The position numbers and the translations under genes are program-made. From positions 1-64,000 of the IMG/VR virus record IMGVR_UViG_3300025030_000062: a stretch of DNA of 64,000 nt; one strand, 5' to 3'. The notes under the pieces were generated by a model that had not been told where the DNA came from, made no database searches, and worked only from the letters and a program-made list of their open reading frames with translations. The number at the start of each line of letters is the position of its first letter. The stretch's first letter is position 1. Positions 2,704 to 10,389 of this stretch are shown in pieces. Source of the stretch: a virus.

Positions 2704-2922
2704 GTGATTAAGGATATGACGAACAAAGAAACAGCAGAACATATGCGAAATTTTATTACAAGAAATCACGGTCCTTTTGCTTGGCCTACTGACGCTTGTG
2801 GTTATGATCAGCATATTAAGTTTGTTAAATACAGAAACGAATTTTGGAATACAAGCTATTCTGGTGACTGGAAACAGTTTGTTAACGAGTACGCAGATAA
2901 GCTTGAGCAGGAGGCTGTGTGA
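2704..2922 (+). CDS. Hypothetical protein
   Basis: RBS AAGGAGG, GTG start, overlaps the next start. Confidence 0.6.
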   Translation: MIKDMTNKETAEHMRNFITRNHGPFAWPTDACGYDQHIKFVKYRNEFWNTSYSGDWKQFVNEYADKLEQEAV

Positions 2923-3677
2923 CAAACCCCTACATACTCTCCAATGACATATTCAAGTCCAGTGAACTAATGGCAATGAAGCTCAAAGAGCGAAAGAGCG
3001 CGGGTTTACCTTTCGACGCGCTTAGACCTGGATACAGTTTCTATGTCAAGATAACAGATATGTCAGAAGCTGCTTTTCGTAGTATGGTAAGTGCTACTTC
3101 TACTCGACATAGAAGGGCGTACAAATGTATCAAGCATAAAGAGCGAGATGTGTTTGAAGTGACTGTTGTTAGTGATGTTGAAATTGAATCGAAACTTGAA
3201 ATGTACGAATCGTCGGCTAAAGCTAAGAACTTGGTCAGACTAGGTAAGCAAGGCCGAAAGATTTATCATTTTGATGTTCTCGAAGAAGGTTACAGTTTCT
3301 CTTATTCTATTGAGGGTAATAGCGAAACTGCTCTTAGGACCGCTTGTAGTTTGTGGTCTAAGAAATTAGGTGTTAGATTCAATTTGTTCAGGCATGATGA
3401 ACTTGGTATCTTCGAGGTTGCGCGGCTTAAACCTTCTCAGCTTACGCATGATCAGCCTATTCCTAGTTCAGCGCGTGCTCTTGCTTATAGAGGTAGGTAT
3501 GATATACCTGAACCTAAACCTAAGCCAGAAATAAAGTTTGAGTATAAATCAGGGCCGTCTCCTATGCTTGTGCCTCTTGTGCCTGAACCGAAGGTTGAGC
3601 CTGAACCACCTCCTGTAGTAAAGCCTGAACCACCACCCAAACCCATGCCTGCTGTTGAATTTTGGAGTGATAAATGA
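2919..3677 (+). CDS. Protein with two PFDxLxxGxSF (DUF7303-like) domains and a Pro-rich tail
   Basis: Internal repeats PFDALRPGYSFYV and YHFDVLEEGYSFSY; PEPKP repeats. Confidence 0.7.
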   Translation: MTNPYILSNDIFKSSELMAMKLKERKSAGLPFDALRPGYSFYVKITDMSEAAFRSMVSATSTRHRRAYKCIKHKERDVFEVTVVSDVEIESKLEMYESSAKAKNLVRLGKQGRKIYHFDVLEEGYSFSYSIEGNSETALRTACSLWSKKLGVRFNLFRHDELGIFEVARLKPSQLTHDQPIPSSARALAYRGRYDIPEPKPKPEIKFEYKSGPSPMLVPLVPEPKVEPEPPPVVKPEPPPKPMPAVEFWSDK

Positions 3678-4120
3678 ACCAGATACCTTACATAGAATTC
3701 TTTAATGGACTTAGTGAAGGTCAATGCTTTTTGATTCCCTGTGAGCAACTTGATGCATTAGAACTTGCAAATATTTGTAATAATGCTGGCGAACACTTGA
3801 AAAAGGAATTCGTTTGTGTTAAAAATGGCGGCAACTTTGAGATATCGCTGAAGTCTCAAGCTGAAATTAGTTCTCCTACATTTGGAATTATTAATATTGT
3901 TGATTCGACGCCGTTGATGCTTGCGAATAACACGGCTCGAATAAGCAATAGAAAGTTTCCTTTCGACACGCTTGAAGTAGGTAAAAGTTTCTTCGTCGCT
4001 TTGAGTGAAGAAGGTAATCTAAGAACTCAGGCTAGCCAGTACGGTAAGAAGCTAGGCCGAAAGTTTAGGTGTGTTAAGCATAAAGAACAGGGCTTAATTG
4101 AGGTAGGAAGAATATCTTAA
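3674..4120 (+). CDS. Protein with two DUF7303-like domains
   Basis: FFNGLSEGQCFLI and FPFDTLEVGKSFFV repeats. Confidence 0.7.
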   Translation: MNQIPYIEFFNGLSEGQCFLIPCEQLDALELANICNNAGEHLKKEFVCVKNGGNFEISLKSQAEISSPTFGIINIVDSTPLMLANNTARISNRKFPFDTLEVGKSFFVALSEEGNLRTQASQYGKKLGRKFRCVKHKEQGLIEVGRIS

Positions 4121-7865: not shown

Positions 7866-8405
7866 ATGATTTTAAGAAACCGATTTAAGCGAAAACGCTC
7901 CGTTAACGAAATGTTAATCTTCACTTTAGCTATTATGATTGCGGTAGCAATGTTCTCTTCAGCAACTGTATGGCTCACTAAGCGGCCAACTCCGCAATTA
8001 AAGAAATGTCACGGCCCTGGGCTTTCGATAGAAACTCTTAAGTATCAGGCTTACTTTTTCGAGGCTAATGCGGGTATTCATGCGTTAGAAGTTGCTAAGG
8101 CTGTGCAGCAGTCGAAGCGTAAACGGCTTACCGCTGCTATCTGCATGGTTGAATCAGGCGGCAAGAAAACGGCGTATAATCGCAGAACTAAGGTTGATGG
8201 GATGTATCAAGTTAACCCTGCTTTTTGGGGTAAGGTAAACACCAAATCAGCTCTTGCTATGACTGCTCAGCACGACGCTATAATGGATGAACTTTTAGCC
8301 GCTTCTAACGGAAACTTGAAGGTTGCATTGAATCGATACGGCGGCGATTCAACTAAAAAGGTCTACGCTCAAAATATATTGAAAGAAATGGAGCGCACCC
8401 CTTGA
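7866..8405 (+). CDS. Membrane-anchored SLT-type lytic transglycosylase
   Basis: N-terminal TM; ICMVESGG (catalytic Glu), GMYQV, ALNRYGG. Confidence 0.75.
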   Translation: MILRNRFKRKRSVNEMLIFTLAIMIAVAMFSSATVWLTKRPTPQLKKCHGPGLSIETLKYQAYFFEANAGIHALEVAKAVQQSKRKRLTAAICMVESGGKKTAYNRRTKVDGMYQVNPAFWGKVNTKSALAMTAQHDAIMDELLAASNGNLKVALNRYGGDSTKKVYAQNILKEMERTP

Positions 8406-8430
8406 CATTGGAATTAAGTTTTGCTAGATT
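8402..8430 (+). promoter_or_regulatory. Strong sigma70-like promoter with extended -10
   Basis: TTGACA-17 bp-TAGATT, with TG one base upstream of the -10. Confidence 0.75.
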
Positions 8431-8472
8431 GCACTCACCGATTAACGAACCAACTAAAAGGAGGAATTAAAA

Positions 8473-9078
8473 GTGGTACTGGAAAACAAAGCTCAGAAGC
8501 TGAAGCGTGAATCTCTCGAAGGTCTTCCGGCAATCGTCGCTGCTACTCAGAGTGAGATTGGTTACATGTTTGCTCCGCTTGAGAACGCGGAATGGCTGAA
8601 TAAGAACGGTCTTGTTGAATTTGATGTAAGTATCACTAACGAAGCGGGATTCATTGCAACCCGCGCAACCACAAAGGGGATTGAAAAAGTTATGAGTGAA
8701 AATGTTCAGGTTGAAGCAGCAGCACCGGTAGCGTCTGGTTATGTGATCGAAGACATCGCAGTTGAAGTAGTTTCCAAGCGTCGTGGTGGTGGTAGGGCTG
8801 GCGTTTCCTACCCGTTTGATGCACTTCAGGTAGGCCAGAGCTTTGTTGTCCCGGCTACTGAGAAGAAGCCGAATCCGGTGAAGTCTATGGCGTCTTCGAT
8901 TACCGCCGCTAATGCTCGTTACGCTACTCCGCTGACTAACGAAGATGGTTCTCCGAAGATGAAAACCATTACCGTTCCGCGTACCGGCGAAAAACGCGAT
9001 GTCCAGGCTACTCAGCTGGTTCGCAAGTTTACTGTTGTTGCTTGCGAAGGTGGTGCAAGGGTGGGGCGCGTGCTGTAA
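8473..9078 (+). CDS. DUF7303-like putative nucleic-acid-binding protein
   Basis: KRRGGGRAG followed by YPFDALQVGQSFVV; AGGAGG RBS. Confidence 0.75.
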   Translation: MVLENKAQKLKRESLEGLPAIVAATQSEIGYMFAPLENAEWLNKNGLVEFDVSITNEAGFIATRATTKGIEKVMSENVQVEAAAPVASGYVIEDIAVEVVSKRRGGGRAGVSYPFDALQVGQSFVVPATEKKPNPVKSMASSITAANARYATPLTNEDGSPKMKTITVPRTGEKRDVQATQLVRKFTVVACEGGARVGRVL

Positions 9079-9187
9079 TAGGTAATAACGGTACACTCAA
9101 AGGCCCAAGTTGAGTGTTTAAATGAAGTAAGATTATTTGCCTATACTTCGGCCAAATTATTTAACCTTTAATTGGAGATAAAACCCA

Positions 9188-9346
9188 ATGAAAACCGAAA
9201 TTAAAAACGCAATCAAGCTGTTGGCTCAGAAGATTACTGGTGATGTGAAGGCTGATGAAGCATTGAAGTTCACGCAAGCTGCATTGAATCTTGCTCATGT
9301 AAGTCAGCTTGTTGTTCAGACCAAGATTGTTGAAGGAAAGAACTGA
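9188..9346 (+). CDS. 52-aa hypothetical protein (not in the ORF track)
   Basis: GGAG RBS; MKTEIKNAIKLLAQKITGDVKADEALKFTQAALNLAHVSQLVVQTKIVEGKN*. Confidence 0.7.
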   Translation: MKTEIKNAIKLLAQKITGDVKADEALKFTQAALNLAHVSQLVVQTKIVEGKN

Positions 9347-9476
9347 GTCAGCACGGAAGGACGTGCGAGATAGCCTTGTGAAAAGACCTCAACCGGATAA
9401 AGCCGTTGGATGGTTCAGTAAACAAGGGTAGCATGTTTGAACAACACGGAACAGGTATCAAGCCCTGTACTCAGTT
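9341..9476 (+). ncRNA. tRNA-like element 1, with an 84-nt insert in place of the anticodon/variable arms
   Basis: AACTGAGT/ACTCAGTT closing stem; D-like arm GCACG-GAAGGA-CGTGC; T-like arm ACAGG-TATCAAGC-CCTGT. Confidence 0.6.
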
Positions 9477-9486
9477 TAAGCTTTAA

Positions 9487-9660
9487 ACGCCTCGCCGAAC
9501 CTTGAAGATGCTGGTGTTGTTTGGTGCTGTAGGCTTGACCTACAGAGGTAAGGTAGCCGTTTCGCGTTGCGGTCTTATCTGAATATGTAGCGCGGGGCTG
9601 AAAGCCGGGTCACTCGTAAGAAGGCTTGACTTTGCCAGTTTCAGAGTAAATTGGTTGTAG
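9487..9660 (+). ncRNA. Putative structured RNA (multi-hairpin)
   Basis: No ORF; stems GCCGAAC/GTTTGGT, CTGTAGG/CCTACAG, TTCGCGTTGC/GTAGCGCGGG, GGC-TGAAA-GCC, GCCAGTTT/AAATTGGT; many G-U pairs on the + strand. Confidence 0.45.
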
Positions 9661-9664
9661 TTTG

Positions 9665-9765
9665 ATTTGCAGCAAGTAGCTCAGCGGATAGAGCGTTCGG
9701 CAATTCGTTTTTACGAATGCAGTAATCTGAAAGGTCGTTGGTTCAAATCCAATCTTGCTGCAAAT
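9665..9765 (+). ncRNA. tRNA-like element 2 (pseudo-tRNA with a 26-nt anticodon loop, no CCA)
   Basis: CAGCAAG-TA-GCTC-AGCGGATA-GAGC-G-TTCGG-[26 nt]-CTGAA-AGGTC-GTTGG-TTCAAAT-CCAAT-CTTGCTG; acceptor stem extends to 12 bp. Confidence 0.8.
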
Positions 9766-9958
9766 TGTTCAGGTTGCGCGGATTCATTAAAGGAAGATCA
9801 GAGCAGTCTTCGCCTGAATAGTAACAGAAGTTAGTTGAAGGTGTTTGCCGCAACGATTTACTGTTTCAAATCGCTAGTACAGTGAGGGCATGATTCGAAG
9901 TTTGAAATATAACCAAATAGCCGAAAAGCCTTTGCATGAGCGACCTGACTACTAGCAA
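9765..9958 (+). ncRNA. Putative structured RNA
   Basis: No ORF; TTGTTCAGG/CCTGAATAG and GCTAGTA/TACTAGC long-range stems. Confidence 0.4.
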
Positions 9959-9960
9959 CG

Positions 9961-10005
9961 AACCCGCTTTGACAGATTAAAACCTGTTAAAGCGGGTTTT
10001 CTTTT
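9961..10005 (+). terminator. Rho-independent terminator
   Basis: AACCCGCTTTGACAG...CTGTTAAAGCGGGTT followed by TTCTTTT. Confidence 0.85.
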
Positions 10006-10014
10006 GCCGAACTC

Positions 10015-10044
10015 TTGACATTCATGATTAAGATTTGTTAGAGT
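10015..10044 (+). promoter_or_regulatory. sigma70-like promoter for the lysis/packaging genes
   Basis: TTGACA-18 bp-TAGAGT with extended TG. Confidence 0.55.
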
Positions 10045-10197
10045 GTTGCCGCAAGCTCCAAAACTTTAGTTTAAGGAGATTCTAATGCAAGAAAGCAAGT
10101 TAACCTGTCCGGTACTGCGTTGGTACGGTCATTGTTACATGAGCGTTGAATGCAAATCTTGTGGAAGATTGCGCTAACCAGTTGTCAGGAGGTATAA

Positions 10198-10389
10198 ATG
10201 CCGCCGCAAACTGAAGAATTTAGTCGTGAAAGTGTTAATGCTCTTGTATGTCCTGCTCTTAATATTCTTAGAGCTATTGAACTTGATTTAGCGGGTTGTG
10301 ACTGTATTTATAAGCCGAAGATTCGCAATGCTACTGATAACTTGCTTAAGCTAATGACTCTTGCTAAACGAGGTGATTTGAATGGCTAA
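10198..10389 (+). CDS. Hypothetical protein
   Basis: AGGAGG RBS. Confidence 0.55.
   Translation: MPPQTEEFSRESVNALVCPALNILRAIELDLAGCDCIYKPKIRNATDNLLKLMTLAKRGDLNG

Follow-up and report, generated by a model that had tools for sequence, protein, structure and literature searches.

Conserved structured RNAs, among them a tRNA gene with a hairpin in its anticodon loop, at the 3' end of a transcription unit of an uncultured groundwater siphovirus

The last ~660 nucleotides (nt) of the transcription unit at positions 8402-10005 of the IMG/VR virus record IMGVR_UViG_3300025030_000062 hold a set of folded RNAs which is real and conserved and which has apparently not been described before. The record, 94.9 kb long and ~81% complete, represents an uncultured siphovirus from groundwater, whose terminase and capsid proteins share at most 41-48% identity with those of any cultured phage. 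Its first 64 kb form the window, the whole stretch of DNA analysed here, and coordinates given without a contig name are those of the window. An earlier reading of this DNA, below called the original prediction, had proposed a self-contained unit ending in an array of tRNA mimics and structured RNAs. A unit of this kind, running from its own promoter to its own terminator and ending in conserved structured RNAs, is indeed present. The RNA elements, all encoded on the + strand, have covarying helices, and their conservation reaches further than that of the protein genes next to them. Our preferred, still tentative reading, based on sequence comparison, is that the stretch may be a cassette array of small structured RNAs as in phage tRNA clusters. 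Its four modules would be a tRNA gene carrying a hairpin (tRNA-like 2), a member of a cloverleaf-shaped RNA family (unit 1, or tRNA-like 1) and two conserved modules that are not tRNAs (blocks 1 and 2).

The key homologues, contigs L040-L044 and L047, were obtained through a metagenome scan with the DUF7303 protein encoded in the unit. L040 and L041 are close sister contigs with DNA ~89-90% identical to the window, L042 and L043 are sister contigs covering the upstream part (L042 being the more diverged), and L044/L047 represent a distant syntenic lineage with DUF7303 proteins 47% and 43% identical, respectively, to that of the window. Public contigs aligned to the region added a wastewater variant of 9547-9796 (run X6) and a second, diverged copy of unit 1 from groundwater and sediment runs (X1/X3/X5). 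The runs containing the stretch itself are groundwater metagenomes, none of them listed as RNA data, with partial relatives in one sediment run and one wastewater run. Run X6, which comes from another study and another habitat, covers only 9547-9796 and a short piece, 9171-9217, the latter belonging to unrelated phages; although registered as RNA-Seq cDNA, it carries a flag as probable DNA, and no conclusion on expression is drawn from it. As controls, the covariation counts were repeated with the helix partners slid. The number of independent lineages per module is effectively 2-4.

tRNA-like 2 (9665-9765, + strand) contains a tRNA body (9670-9761) which scores 48.5 bits against the Rfam tRNA model (RF00005; cut-off 29 bits), is also called by ARAGORN (9669-9762) and is the sole tRNA-family match of Rfam in the 94.9-kb record. 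The acceptor stem pairs 9670-9676 with 9754-9760 and is extended by five extra pairs to 12 bp. The remaining parts are (i) a D arm, GCUC/AGCGGAUA/GAGC; (ii) an intact anticodon stem, UUCGG/CUGAA; (iii) a variable loop, AGGUC; (iv) a T arm, GUUGG/UUCAAAU/CCAAU, and the discriminator C. The core of the L-shape is kept, including U8, A9, A14, G18G19, A21, G26 and the pairs G15-C48 and G53-C61. The anticodon loop, in which the Rfam alignment places a 25-nt insert, comprises 26 nt (9701-9726) in the order CA, a hairpin with six perfect base pairs and a loop of U4, and GCAGUAAU; the inserted hairpin measures 19 nt (9703-9721) and has a GCA triplet on either side. A 7-nt anticodon loop with U33 is thus not present in this RNA. 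CCA is not encoded, the discriminator C being followed by AAA, and no gene for a CCA-adding enzyme was found in the 94.9-kb, ~81%-complete record. Both the Rfam score and a direct reading agree with the original prediction, which had described a tRNA-like unit with a longer hairpin in place of the anticodon arm and no CCA.

In run X6 tRNA-like 2 is retained together with its insert: over positions 9686-9796 two letters are substituted and the hairpin loop is longer by one T, and 2 nt also differ in the D loop. The left flank (9547-9685) is ~9% diverged in this run, with 10 substitutions and 3 gaps. Since the wastewater variant keeps the whole of tRNA-like 2, the insert is not an assembly error, nor is it a lesion of recent origin. 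No other copy of the inserted hairpin occurs in the genome. A group I intron was considered and ruled out, because the insert is only 19 nt long, against ~200 nt or more for such introns, and no Rfam intron model matches.

Unit 1 (9341-9476, + strand) is a cloverleaf-shaped RNA of 136 nt, which begins with an 8-bp closing stem (P1), a 2-nt linker and a 5-bp hairpin with the loop GAAGGA. The rest consists of a 62-nt long arm, a small hairpin with the loop UGAAC, and a T-like hairpin abutting the 3' strand of P1. The original prediction had presented this segment as a first tRNA-like unit. The stems that it described are present (folding z -2.6) and the shape is that of a cloverleaf, since four independent minimum free energy folds, those of the window and of the L041, L040 and L044 homologues, share the plan; as a tRNA, however, the unit fails every detector. 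No Rfam match is obtained at E<=10, and ARAGORN makes no call with lowered thresholds, either natively or for any of 2,526 single deletions in its long arm. The unit has no standard D and T loops, and by direct reading CCA is not encoded.

The conservation of unit 1 extends over both close and distant relatives. Between the window and L041 it is 97.8% identical, against 94% for the adjacent coding DNA. Homologues are located at L040:815-927 (113 nt) and L044:2064-2199 (136 nt), and the helices P1 and P2 show four compensatory pairs compared with 0-1 in the slid controls. In the first 26 nt of the unit, 19 of 26 positions align between the window and L044, so the copies are homologous and not just alike in shape. 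The diverged variant from runs X1/X3/X5 has only the 42-nt apical core (9380-9421) in common with unit 1. Around this core, compensatory differences affect 4 of 5 pairs in the first, D-like hairpin, whose loop reads GAUGGA, 3 of 6 pairs at the foot of the long arm and 6 of 6 in the small hairpin, which keeps its loop; these changes were scored by eye on the loose consensus ends, each 30 letters long. From these comparisons, unit 1 is a member of a family of cloverleaf-shaped RNAs homologous between phage lineages.

Both units of the window contain the sequence CAGUAA (9416-9421 and 9720-9725) directly 5' of the 3' strand of the helix equivalent to the anticodon stem, that is, where C32-N33-G34-U35-A36-A37 of tRNA-Tyr would be. 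The unit-1 homologues of L040 and L044 have ACGUAAA and CCGUAACC, respectively, at the same site, with GUAA 0-2 nt from the helix. Position 33 in the four units is A, A, C and C, and never U. This shared tyrosine-type half loop appears to be a lead of moderate weight. An enrichment of AGUAA or GUAA in the arrays was also considered and was found to be no stronger than that of several other 5-mers.

The hairpin of tRNA-like 2 could instead be an intron. The RNA would then be an intron-containing tRNA-Tyr(GUA) from which the 19-nt hairpin is spliced, perhaps with joining by RtcB, and unit 1 would be a diverged second case; we consider this improbable. Bacterial tRNA-Tyr belongs to class II, and bacterial TyrRS uses its long variable arm, whereas the body of tRNA-like 2 is of class I and, by textbook knowledge, ill-suited to that enzyme. 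In silico removal of the 19 nt between the GCA repeats does yield a 75-nt sequence with a 7-nt loop which ARAGORN calls as tRNA-Tyr(gta), but position 33 is then A, as after every notional excision, and not the near-universal U. An RtcB ligase, the enzyme that joins tRNA exons in archaeal and eukaryal splicing, is encoded at 1600-2694 (Pfam E 4.3e-86), but no splicing endonuclease has been identified, and RNase III would need a longer stem than the 6-8 bp of the hairpin. Lak phages are known to have short, conserved introns in their tRNAs, including one in tRNA-Tyr(GTA) (PMC6784885), and the insert studied here is likewise conserved, in run X6. Its position 5' of the anticodon is nevertheless not the usual intron position 37/38, and the fold (a 5-bp stem, a 2-nt bulge, a 6-bp stem and an 8-nt bulge) is not a bulge-helix-bulge. 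CCA is unencoded, unlike in the canonical tRNAs of the sister lineage L044/L047. If the hairpin were spliced out after all, this would point to a tRNA-splicing pathway that has yet to be characterised in bacteria and in the viruses that infect them.

The preferred reading of a cassette array also includes two modules that are not tRNA-shaped. Block 1 (9488-9655, + strand) is a multi-helix module with a core at 9524-9654 and a terminal hairpin at 9635-9654. The core is 71% identical to that of L044, whose DUF7303 protein is just 47% identical to that of the window. Its 35 pairs are 92% paired, against 27-50% in the slid controls, and include four double changes. The last hairpin has a different paired sequence in each of three contigs: CCAGUUU/AAAUUGG (window), CCGGUU/AACCGG (L041) and CUAGAU/AUCUAG (L044). 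A likeness of block 1 to the 3' end of 16S rRNA and to CR-I of RNase P RNA was discarded, as it is not conserved in L044 and has no support from Rfam.

Block 2 (9762-9872, + strand) consists, according to RNAalifold, of a three-way junction and a long hairpin, and is the most conserved module, about 80% identical to L044. Compensatory change is found in 7 of its 36 pairs, compared with 0-1 in the slid controls, and none of 500 shuffles reaches 7. The module can be assigned to the + strand, because several invariant G-U pairs would turn into A-C if the opposite strand were read. The covariance model built for block 2 (R1) recognises the window, L040, L041, L044 and L047 at 86-129 bits and nothing else in ~400 kb of related DNA; it detects a single copy in the genome. 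A pseudoknot GUUGCG/CGCAAC, considered for block 2, is by eye not kept in L044. Downstream lies a variable tail (9873-9958, + strand), which is the same in L040 and replaced in L041 and L044. The two structured blocks of the original prediction were therefore found to have covarying cores, although the second is conserved just over 9762-9872 and the single-sequence folding energies of both are ordinary (z -0.9 for block 1 and -0.2 for block 2).

Searches of Rfam and ARAGORN and an examination of covariation at homologous loci had been proposed together with the original prediction, and all were carried out. tRNA-like 2 is recognised by both tools and unit 1 is not called by ARAGORN; in 8300-10200, nothing beyond tRNA-like 2 matches Rfam even at E<=10, so that unit 1, block 1 and block 2 are left without an Rfam family. 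Compensatory changes occur in the helices of unit 1 and of both blocks. Because the spacer blocks covary, the homologous loci do not consist only of decaying tRNAs without covariation.

The array family is very rare. With blastn, the whole unit had no match in 50,697 phage records, and tRNA-like 2 alone gave only generic matches of the D arm and T arm. Exact and degenerate DNA patterns of the 3' half of the tRNA, the apical core of unit 1 and the core of block 2 returned no true match in IMG/VR, and none for the family in 185,579 species genomes and IMG/VR together. One pattern match in each of the two collections is due to chance, since model R1 scores neither.

The organization of the array differs considerably between relatives. 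In L041, unit 1 is followed by an extra ~200 nt and by block 1 directly adjoining block 2, with no tRNA. L040 lacks 9365-9761, so that block 1 and the tRNA are gone, and keeps block 2 and the tail; its 113-nt relative of unit 1 shares the closing stem and the first hairpin and has a different interior, and a closed multi-hairpin unit of 97 nt is added. The order in L044/L047 is DUF7303, block 1, unit-1 homologue, tRNA-Pro(UGG), tRNA-Asn(GUU), closed unit, block 2 and terminator, and the 52-aa open reading frame (ORF) present in the window is missing. The two tRNAs of this lineage are canonical, encode CCA and occupy the tRNA slot. The window contains nothing equivalent to the closed three-hairpin units (L040:716-812 and L044:2449-2545; folding z -4.5 and -1.9), which lack any tRNA signature.

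Such variants also co-exist. In run X1, joints like those of L040 (depth about 47) and L041 (about 14) occur beside the main form (about 105), which indicates that the array varies within one phage population. Judged from these sequences, the locus is a cassette hot spot where modules are gained and lost between co-existing phage variants. The alternation of tRNA-like units and structured blocks that the original prediction had described is the layout of the window, but it is no fixed design, as the modules are swapped as cassettes in relatives. The contig of the closest IMG/VR relative, L024 (IMGVR_UViG_3300025030_000367; 89% nt identity), stops exactly at window 9966 and carries no array. 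Position 1 of the L024 locus corresponds to window 9966, so that this contig breaks at the array terminator; this fits assembly breakage caused by co-existing array variants.

The ~660 nt might alternatively form one large ornate noncoding RNA of the GOLLD or ROOL type, with the blocks as its core and the tRNA and cloverleaf units as optional inserts, an explanation to which we give little probability. The full stretch folds better than shuffled sequences (z -5.0, 20 shuffles), but the modules look self-contained, each being closed by a stem of its own. The adjacency of blocks 1 and 2 in L041, with no tRNA between them, suits a common core, whereas L040 lacks block 1 entirely although it retains block 2 and the tail, the supposed pairing partner of block 1. 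This pairing is an imperfect long-range complementarity of 25 nt (9603-9627 with 9926-9950, -34.6 kcal/mol), which would enclose the tRNA and block 2. It was dropped as a candidate, since the duplex is lost in L041 and L044, and L040 possesses the 3' arm without the 5' arm. GOLLD and ROOL are often found near tRNAs and in prophages (PMC5737381). Neither their models nor any other large RNA of Rfam matched 8300-10200 at E<=10, however, and the GOLLD and ROOL models had no match in L040, L041 and L044 at E<=5.

The signals that delimit the proposed array unit are well defined. Upstream, a sigma-70-type promoter with an extended -10 element (8402-8430, + strand; TTGACA-17-TAGATT with TG) matches the consensus at 10 of 12 positions, is identical in L043 and is kept in the diverged L042 as TTGACT-17-TATAAG. 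Downstream, an intrinsic terminator (9960-10005, + strand) is formed by a 16-bp stem and a T run, and its stem shows compensatory changes in L041 and L044. The terminator loop, (A/U)UUAAAA, is kept across all lineages while the stems vary, which is unusual for a plain terminator. Between these signals, the ~660 nt at the 3' end of the unit are without a conserved ORF: in 9347-9958 the sole ORFs start with TTG, encode 40 and 55 aa and lie in segments missing from sister contigs. The near-consensus promoter, the strong terminator and the ORF-free 3' stretch of the original prediction are all confirmed by these data. No tmRNA, with its tRNA-like domain and tag frame, was found by ARAGORN in the window. 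A possible internal promoter, TTGACT at 9624, was rejected, as no usable -10 element follows in the window, L041 or L044. The promoter of the next unit (10015-10044, + strand), a near-consensus TTGACA-18-TAGAGT with TG, begins 10 nt past the terminator; this promoter and its leader are nearly identical in L024, L040 and L041.

An intergenic leader (9079-9187, + strand) separates the two ORFs of the unit and contains an 8-bp hairpin (9093-9117) followed by UUUAAAU. Over its 109 nt it is near-invariant between the window, L040 and L041, with few substitutions and one 8-nt indel, located just 5' of the ribosome-binding site of the 52-aa ORF, and it is better conserved than the flanking coding DNA (about 89-94% identical). 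Possible roles are those of an attenuator, of a site of processing or of an additional small RNA.

The first gene of the unit (8473-9078, + strand) encodes a DUF7303 protein of 201 aa (Pfam E 2.4e-43). Its AF2 model (pLDDT 87.8) has an N-terminal winged helix, a disordered RG-rich linker and a beta-rich C-domain. By VIA, the N-domain is nearest to HrcA (Z 8.1), followed by MarR/PadR-type and other winged-helix chains (5.5-6.9), and scores Z 5.6 against the N-domain of T4 MotA. The C-domain has no clear fold match in the PDB (Z 4.3 at best by VIA, E 0.23 by Foldseek). A profile-based comparison with PDB sequences yielded no significant match, and no mention of DUF7303 was found in the literature. 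The C-domain (8785-9075; motif PFDxLxVGxSFxV) recurs in the proteins encoded at 2919-3677 and 3674-4120, which have partial Pfam DUF7303 matches (E 8e-05 and 6e-07). Relatives of DUF7303 number 833 in a representative library.

The second gene is the 52-aa ORF (9188-9346, + strand), with 16 relatives in IMG/VR at 48-78% identity; its TGA stop falls within the closing stem of unit 1. None of these relatives has an RNA array downstream. Elsewhere the ORF adjoins terminase- or portal-like genes, namely a Pfam terminase in L015 and a sub-threshold SU10-portal match in L013. In the relatives L013, L014, L017 and L021, ORFs of ~590-660 aa flank the 52-aa homologue. The product is probably a small packaging-module or head-associated protein and not an RNA partner. 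The succession of a DUF7303-like protein and a 52-aa ORF is thus as originally described.

That these proteins work together with the RNAs had also been suggested, and the system could be a dedicated protein-RNA one, in which DUF7303, the 52-aa protein or both bind the RNAs as part of one counter-defence operon. This is very unlikely in our estimation. One promoter and one terminator imply co-transcription, which is real, and the array follows DUF7303 in two lineages (the window group and L044/L047); DUF7303, however, is widespread without the array, being present in 125 cultured phage records, and neither a tRNA nor block 2 is present at the six DUF7303 loci from IMG/VR that were examined. 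The RG-rich linker and the repetition of the C-domain in two other phage proteins would suit such a system, whereas the N-domain resembles regulators most closely. The 52-aa ORF, for its part, is missing from the L044 array and adjoins the terminase- or portal-like genes named above in other phages. A functional partnership between proteins and RNAs is therefore not supported.

The RtcB gene is overlapped by a SLOG (YpsA-family) gene (Pfam E 3e-09), the two forming an RNA-repair pair (1085-2694) ~7 kb upstream. An upstream SLT-like protein has no relatives in IMG/VR, and the relatives of the endolysin (L025-L031) share just the endolysin or lysis genes and no array. No Ro60/TROVE gene was found in the 94.9-kb, ~81%-complete record, and a retron noncoding RNA was rejected for lack of a reverse transcriptase (RVT_1) in the record.

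Evolutionary debris, meaning a decaying tRNA cluster followed by a long functionless 3' untranslated region, is the least probable explanation and already disfavoured: the tRNA slot is filled by normal tRNAs in one sister lineage and empty in another, unit 1 fails the tRNA models and the family is scarce, but unit 1 surpasses the adjacent coding DNA in conservation, the block cores remain 71-80% identical to L044 over a distance at which the neighbouring protein has fallen below half, compensatory changes are found in all modules and the insert-bearing tRNA persists across habitats.

Under the preferred reading of a cassette array, a polycistronic transcript would be cut at the acceptor-like stems by host tRNA-processing enzymes, with the 5' cut made by RNase P and the 3' cut by RNase Z, RNase E or exonucleases. 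As natural scaffolds, the tRNA-shaped bodies would stabilise the arms inserted 5' of the half loop. Self-closed units, acceptor-like stems set against a T-type hairpin, their placement in one transcription unit and the tRNA locus are what is expected of RNAs processed like tRNAs from a precursor, and we put the chance that the RNAs are released and the arms scaffolded in this way at about even. The units of the window probably do not decode, in view of the 26-nt loop, the lack of U33, the unencoded CCA beside sister tRNAs that encode it, and the D and T loops of unit 1, which are not of the standard form.

A function can be proposed only speculatively. A non-decoding look-alike of tRNA-Tyr in a phage with RtcB suggests a conflict over tRNA integrity. 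tRNA-Tyr is cut by the defence systems Retron-Eco7 PtuAB and Septu, and phage tRNA-Tyr counters both, the extra phage tRNA-Tyr replacing and partly shielding that of the host (PMC11555353, PMC13096335). The tRNA-Tyr-like units might titrate a host factor that binds tRNA-Tyr, the likeliest target being a defence nuclease that, like Septu or Retron-Eco7 PtuAB, is directed against tRNA-Tyr, with the phage RtcB as a second line against tRNA cleavage. Titration through the tyrosine-type half loops is speculative and, in our judgement, rather unlikely to be correct. The fuller proposal, in which a tRNA(Tyr)-derived scaffold with interchangeable arms 5' of a retained GUA-A half loop would yield stable, non-decoding mimics that form, with the two RNA modules, a rapidly reshuffled counter-defence array against immune nucleases directed at tRNA-Tyr, with RtcB as the repair enzyme, is less likely still.

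Several points weigh against these interpretations. The covariation counts rest on few events, as the comparative set is tiny, and with 2-4 independent lineages they are suggestive rather than statistically secure. The placement of the half loop may partly be due to chance, because the motif was noticed post hoc and GUAA is locally common (6 occurrences in 612 nt versus 3 expected). The body of tRNA-like 2 lacks the variable arm that Septu and PtuAB cut, being of class I. The decoy model, moreover, leaves both blocks, the best conserved parts of the array, unexplained.

Odd tRNA-like genes in phage tRNA regions are known already, as are short unexplained inserts in phage tRNAs (PMC6784885). 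New are (i) a canonical tRNA core with a hairpin 5' of a tyrosine-type half loop; (ii) a cloverleaf family of the same plan; (iii) two covarying modules without an Rfam family; (iv) the turnover of cassettes in a single population. Three RNA families without an Rfam match are thus supported by covariation and outlast the neighbouring protein in conservation, yet are swapped as cassettes among the phage variants of a single groundwater sample. Phage tRNA regions are known as counter-defence loci, and attention has so far been directed to complete, decoding tRNAs. If the RNAs are stable products, phages would also deploy tRNA look-alikes and use the tRNA body as a natural display scaffold. If the counter-defence reading is true, bacterial viruses would possess a natural equivalent of engineered tRNA scaffolds, and the array would be an example of RNA-only anti-defence.

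The original prediction had seen in this locus a candidate for an undescribed system; what stands is a set of undescribed structured RNAs without an Rfam match, while their link to the co-transcribed proteins is weak. Among known systems, the tRNA region of phage T4 reportedly encodes stable non-tRNA RNAs, the "species 1 and 2" RNAs. As in T4-type clusters, tRNAs and tRNA-sized structured RNAs lie here in one unit behind small ORFs, processing from a polycistronic precursor is expected, and the tRNA content varies between related phages. Set apart by description, the present array differs in that its sole tRNA-family member has a disrupted anticodon loop and that two further conserved modules are not tRNA-shaped. 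Certain tRNAs of Lak megaphages resemble tRNA-like 2 in having a short, conserved insert in the anticodon region, not of group I, and a Tyr-type anticodon (Devoto et al. 2019, PMC6784885). Compared by description, they belong to a 540-kb gut megaphage and not to a 95-kb groundwater siphovirus, and the insert described here lies 5' of the anticodon, with A33.

The YrlA RNAs (RF02553) are also non-decoding, with a tRNA-like architecture of D arm, T arm and acceptor and no free CCA, and in some bacteria their genes are associated with RtcB. In YrlA, however, the acceptor is closed and it is the anticodon-like stem that is open, whereas the units of the window have the normal tRNA topology. Its model has no match in the window at E<=10, and gives only a sub-threshold score of 21.7 bits over the canonical tRNAs of L044. 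With GOLLD and ROOL the array shares hundreds of nt of conserved structured RNA beside tRNAs in phages and prophages (PMC5737381); in contrast to them, its modules occur independently of each other and its distribution is much narrower. Phage tRNA-Tyr genes active in counter-defence (PMC11555353, PMC13096335) are likewise products of a tRNA region with a Tyr-type anticodon sequence. Those are complete decoding class II tRNAs, whereas the units described here cannot decode as written; we infer a possible link between the two.

Finally, RNAs built on tRNA scaffolds comprise engineered tRNA scaffolds and the tRNA-like processing handles of viruses or cells, such as the TMERs of MHV68 and mascRNA. 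All of these are engineered or eukaryotic, and to our knowledge no natural counterpart in a bacterial virus has been described. In the array, as in these cases, a foreign hairpin stands in place of the anticodon loop of a tRNA, an arrangement that would provide the inserted RNA with both processing signals and stability.

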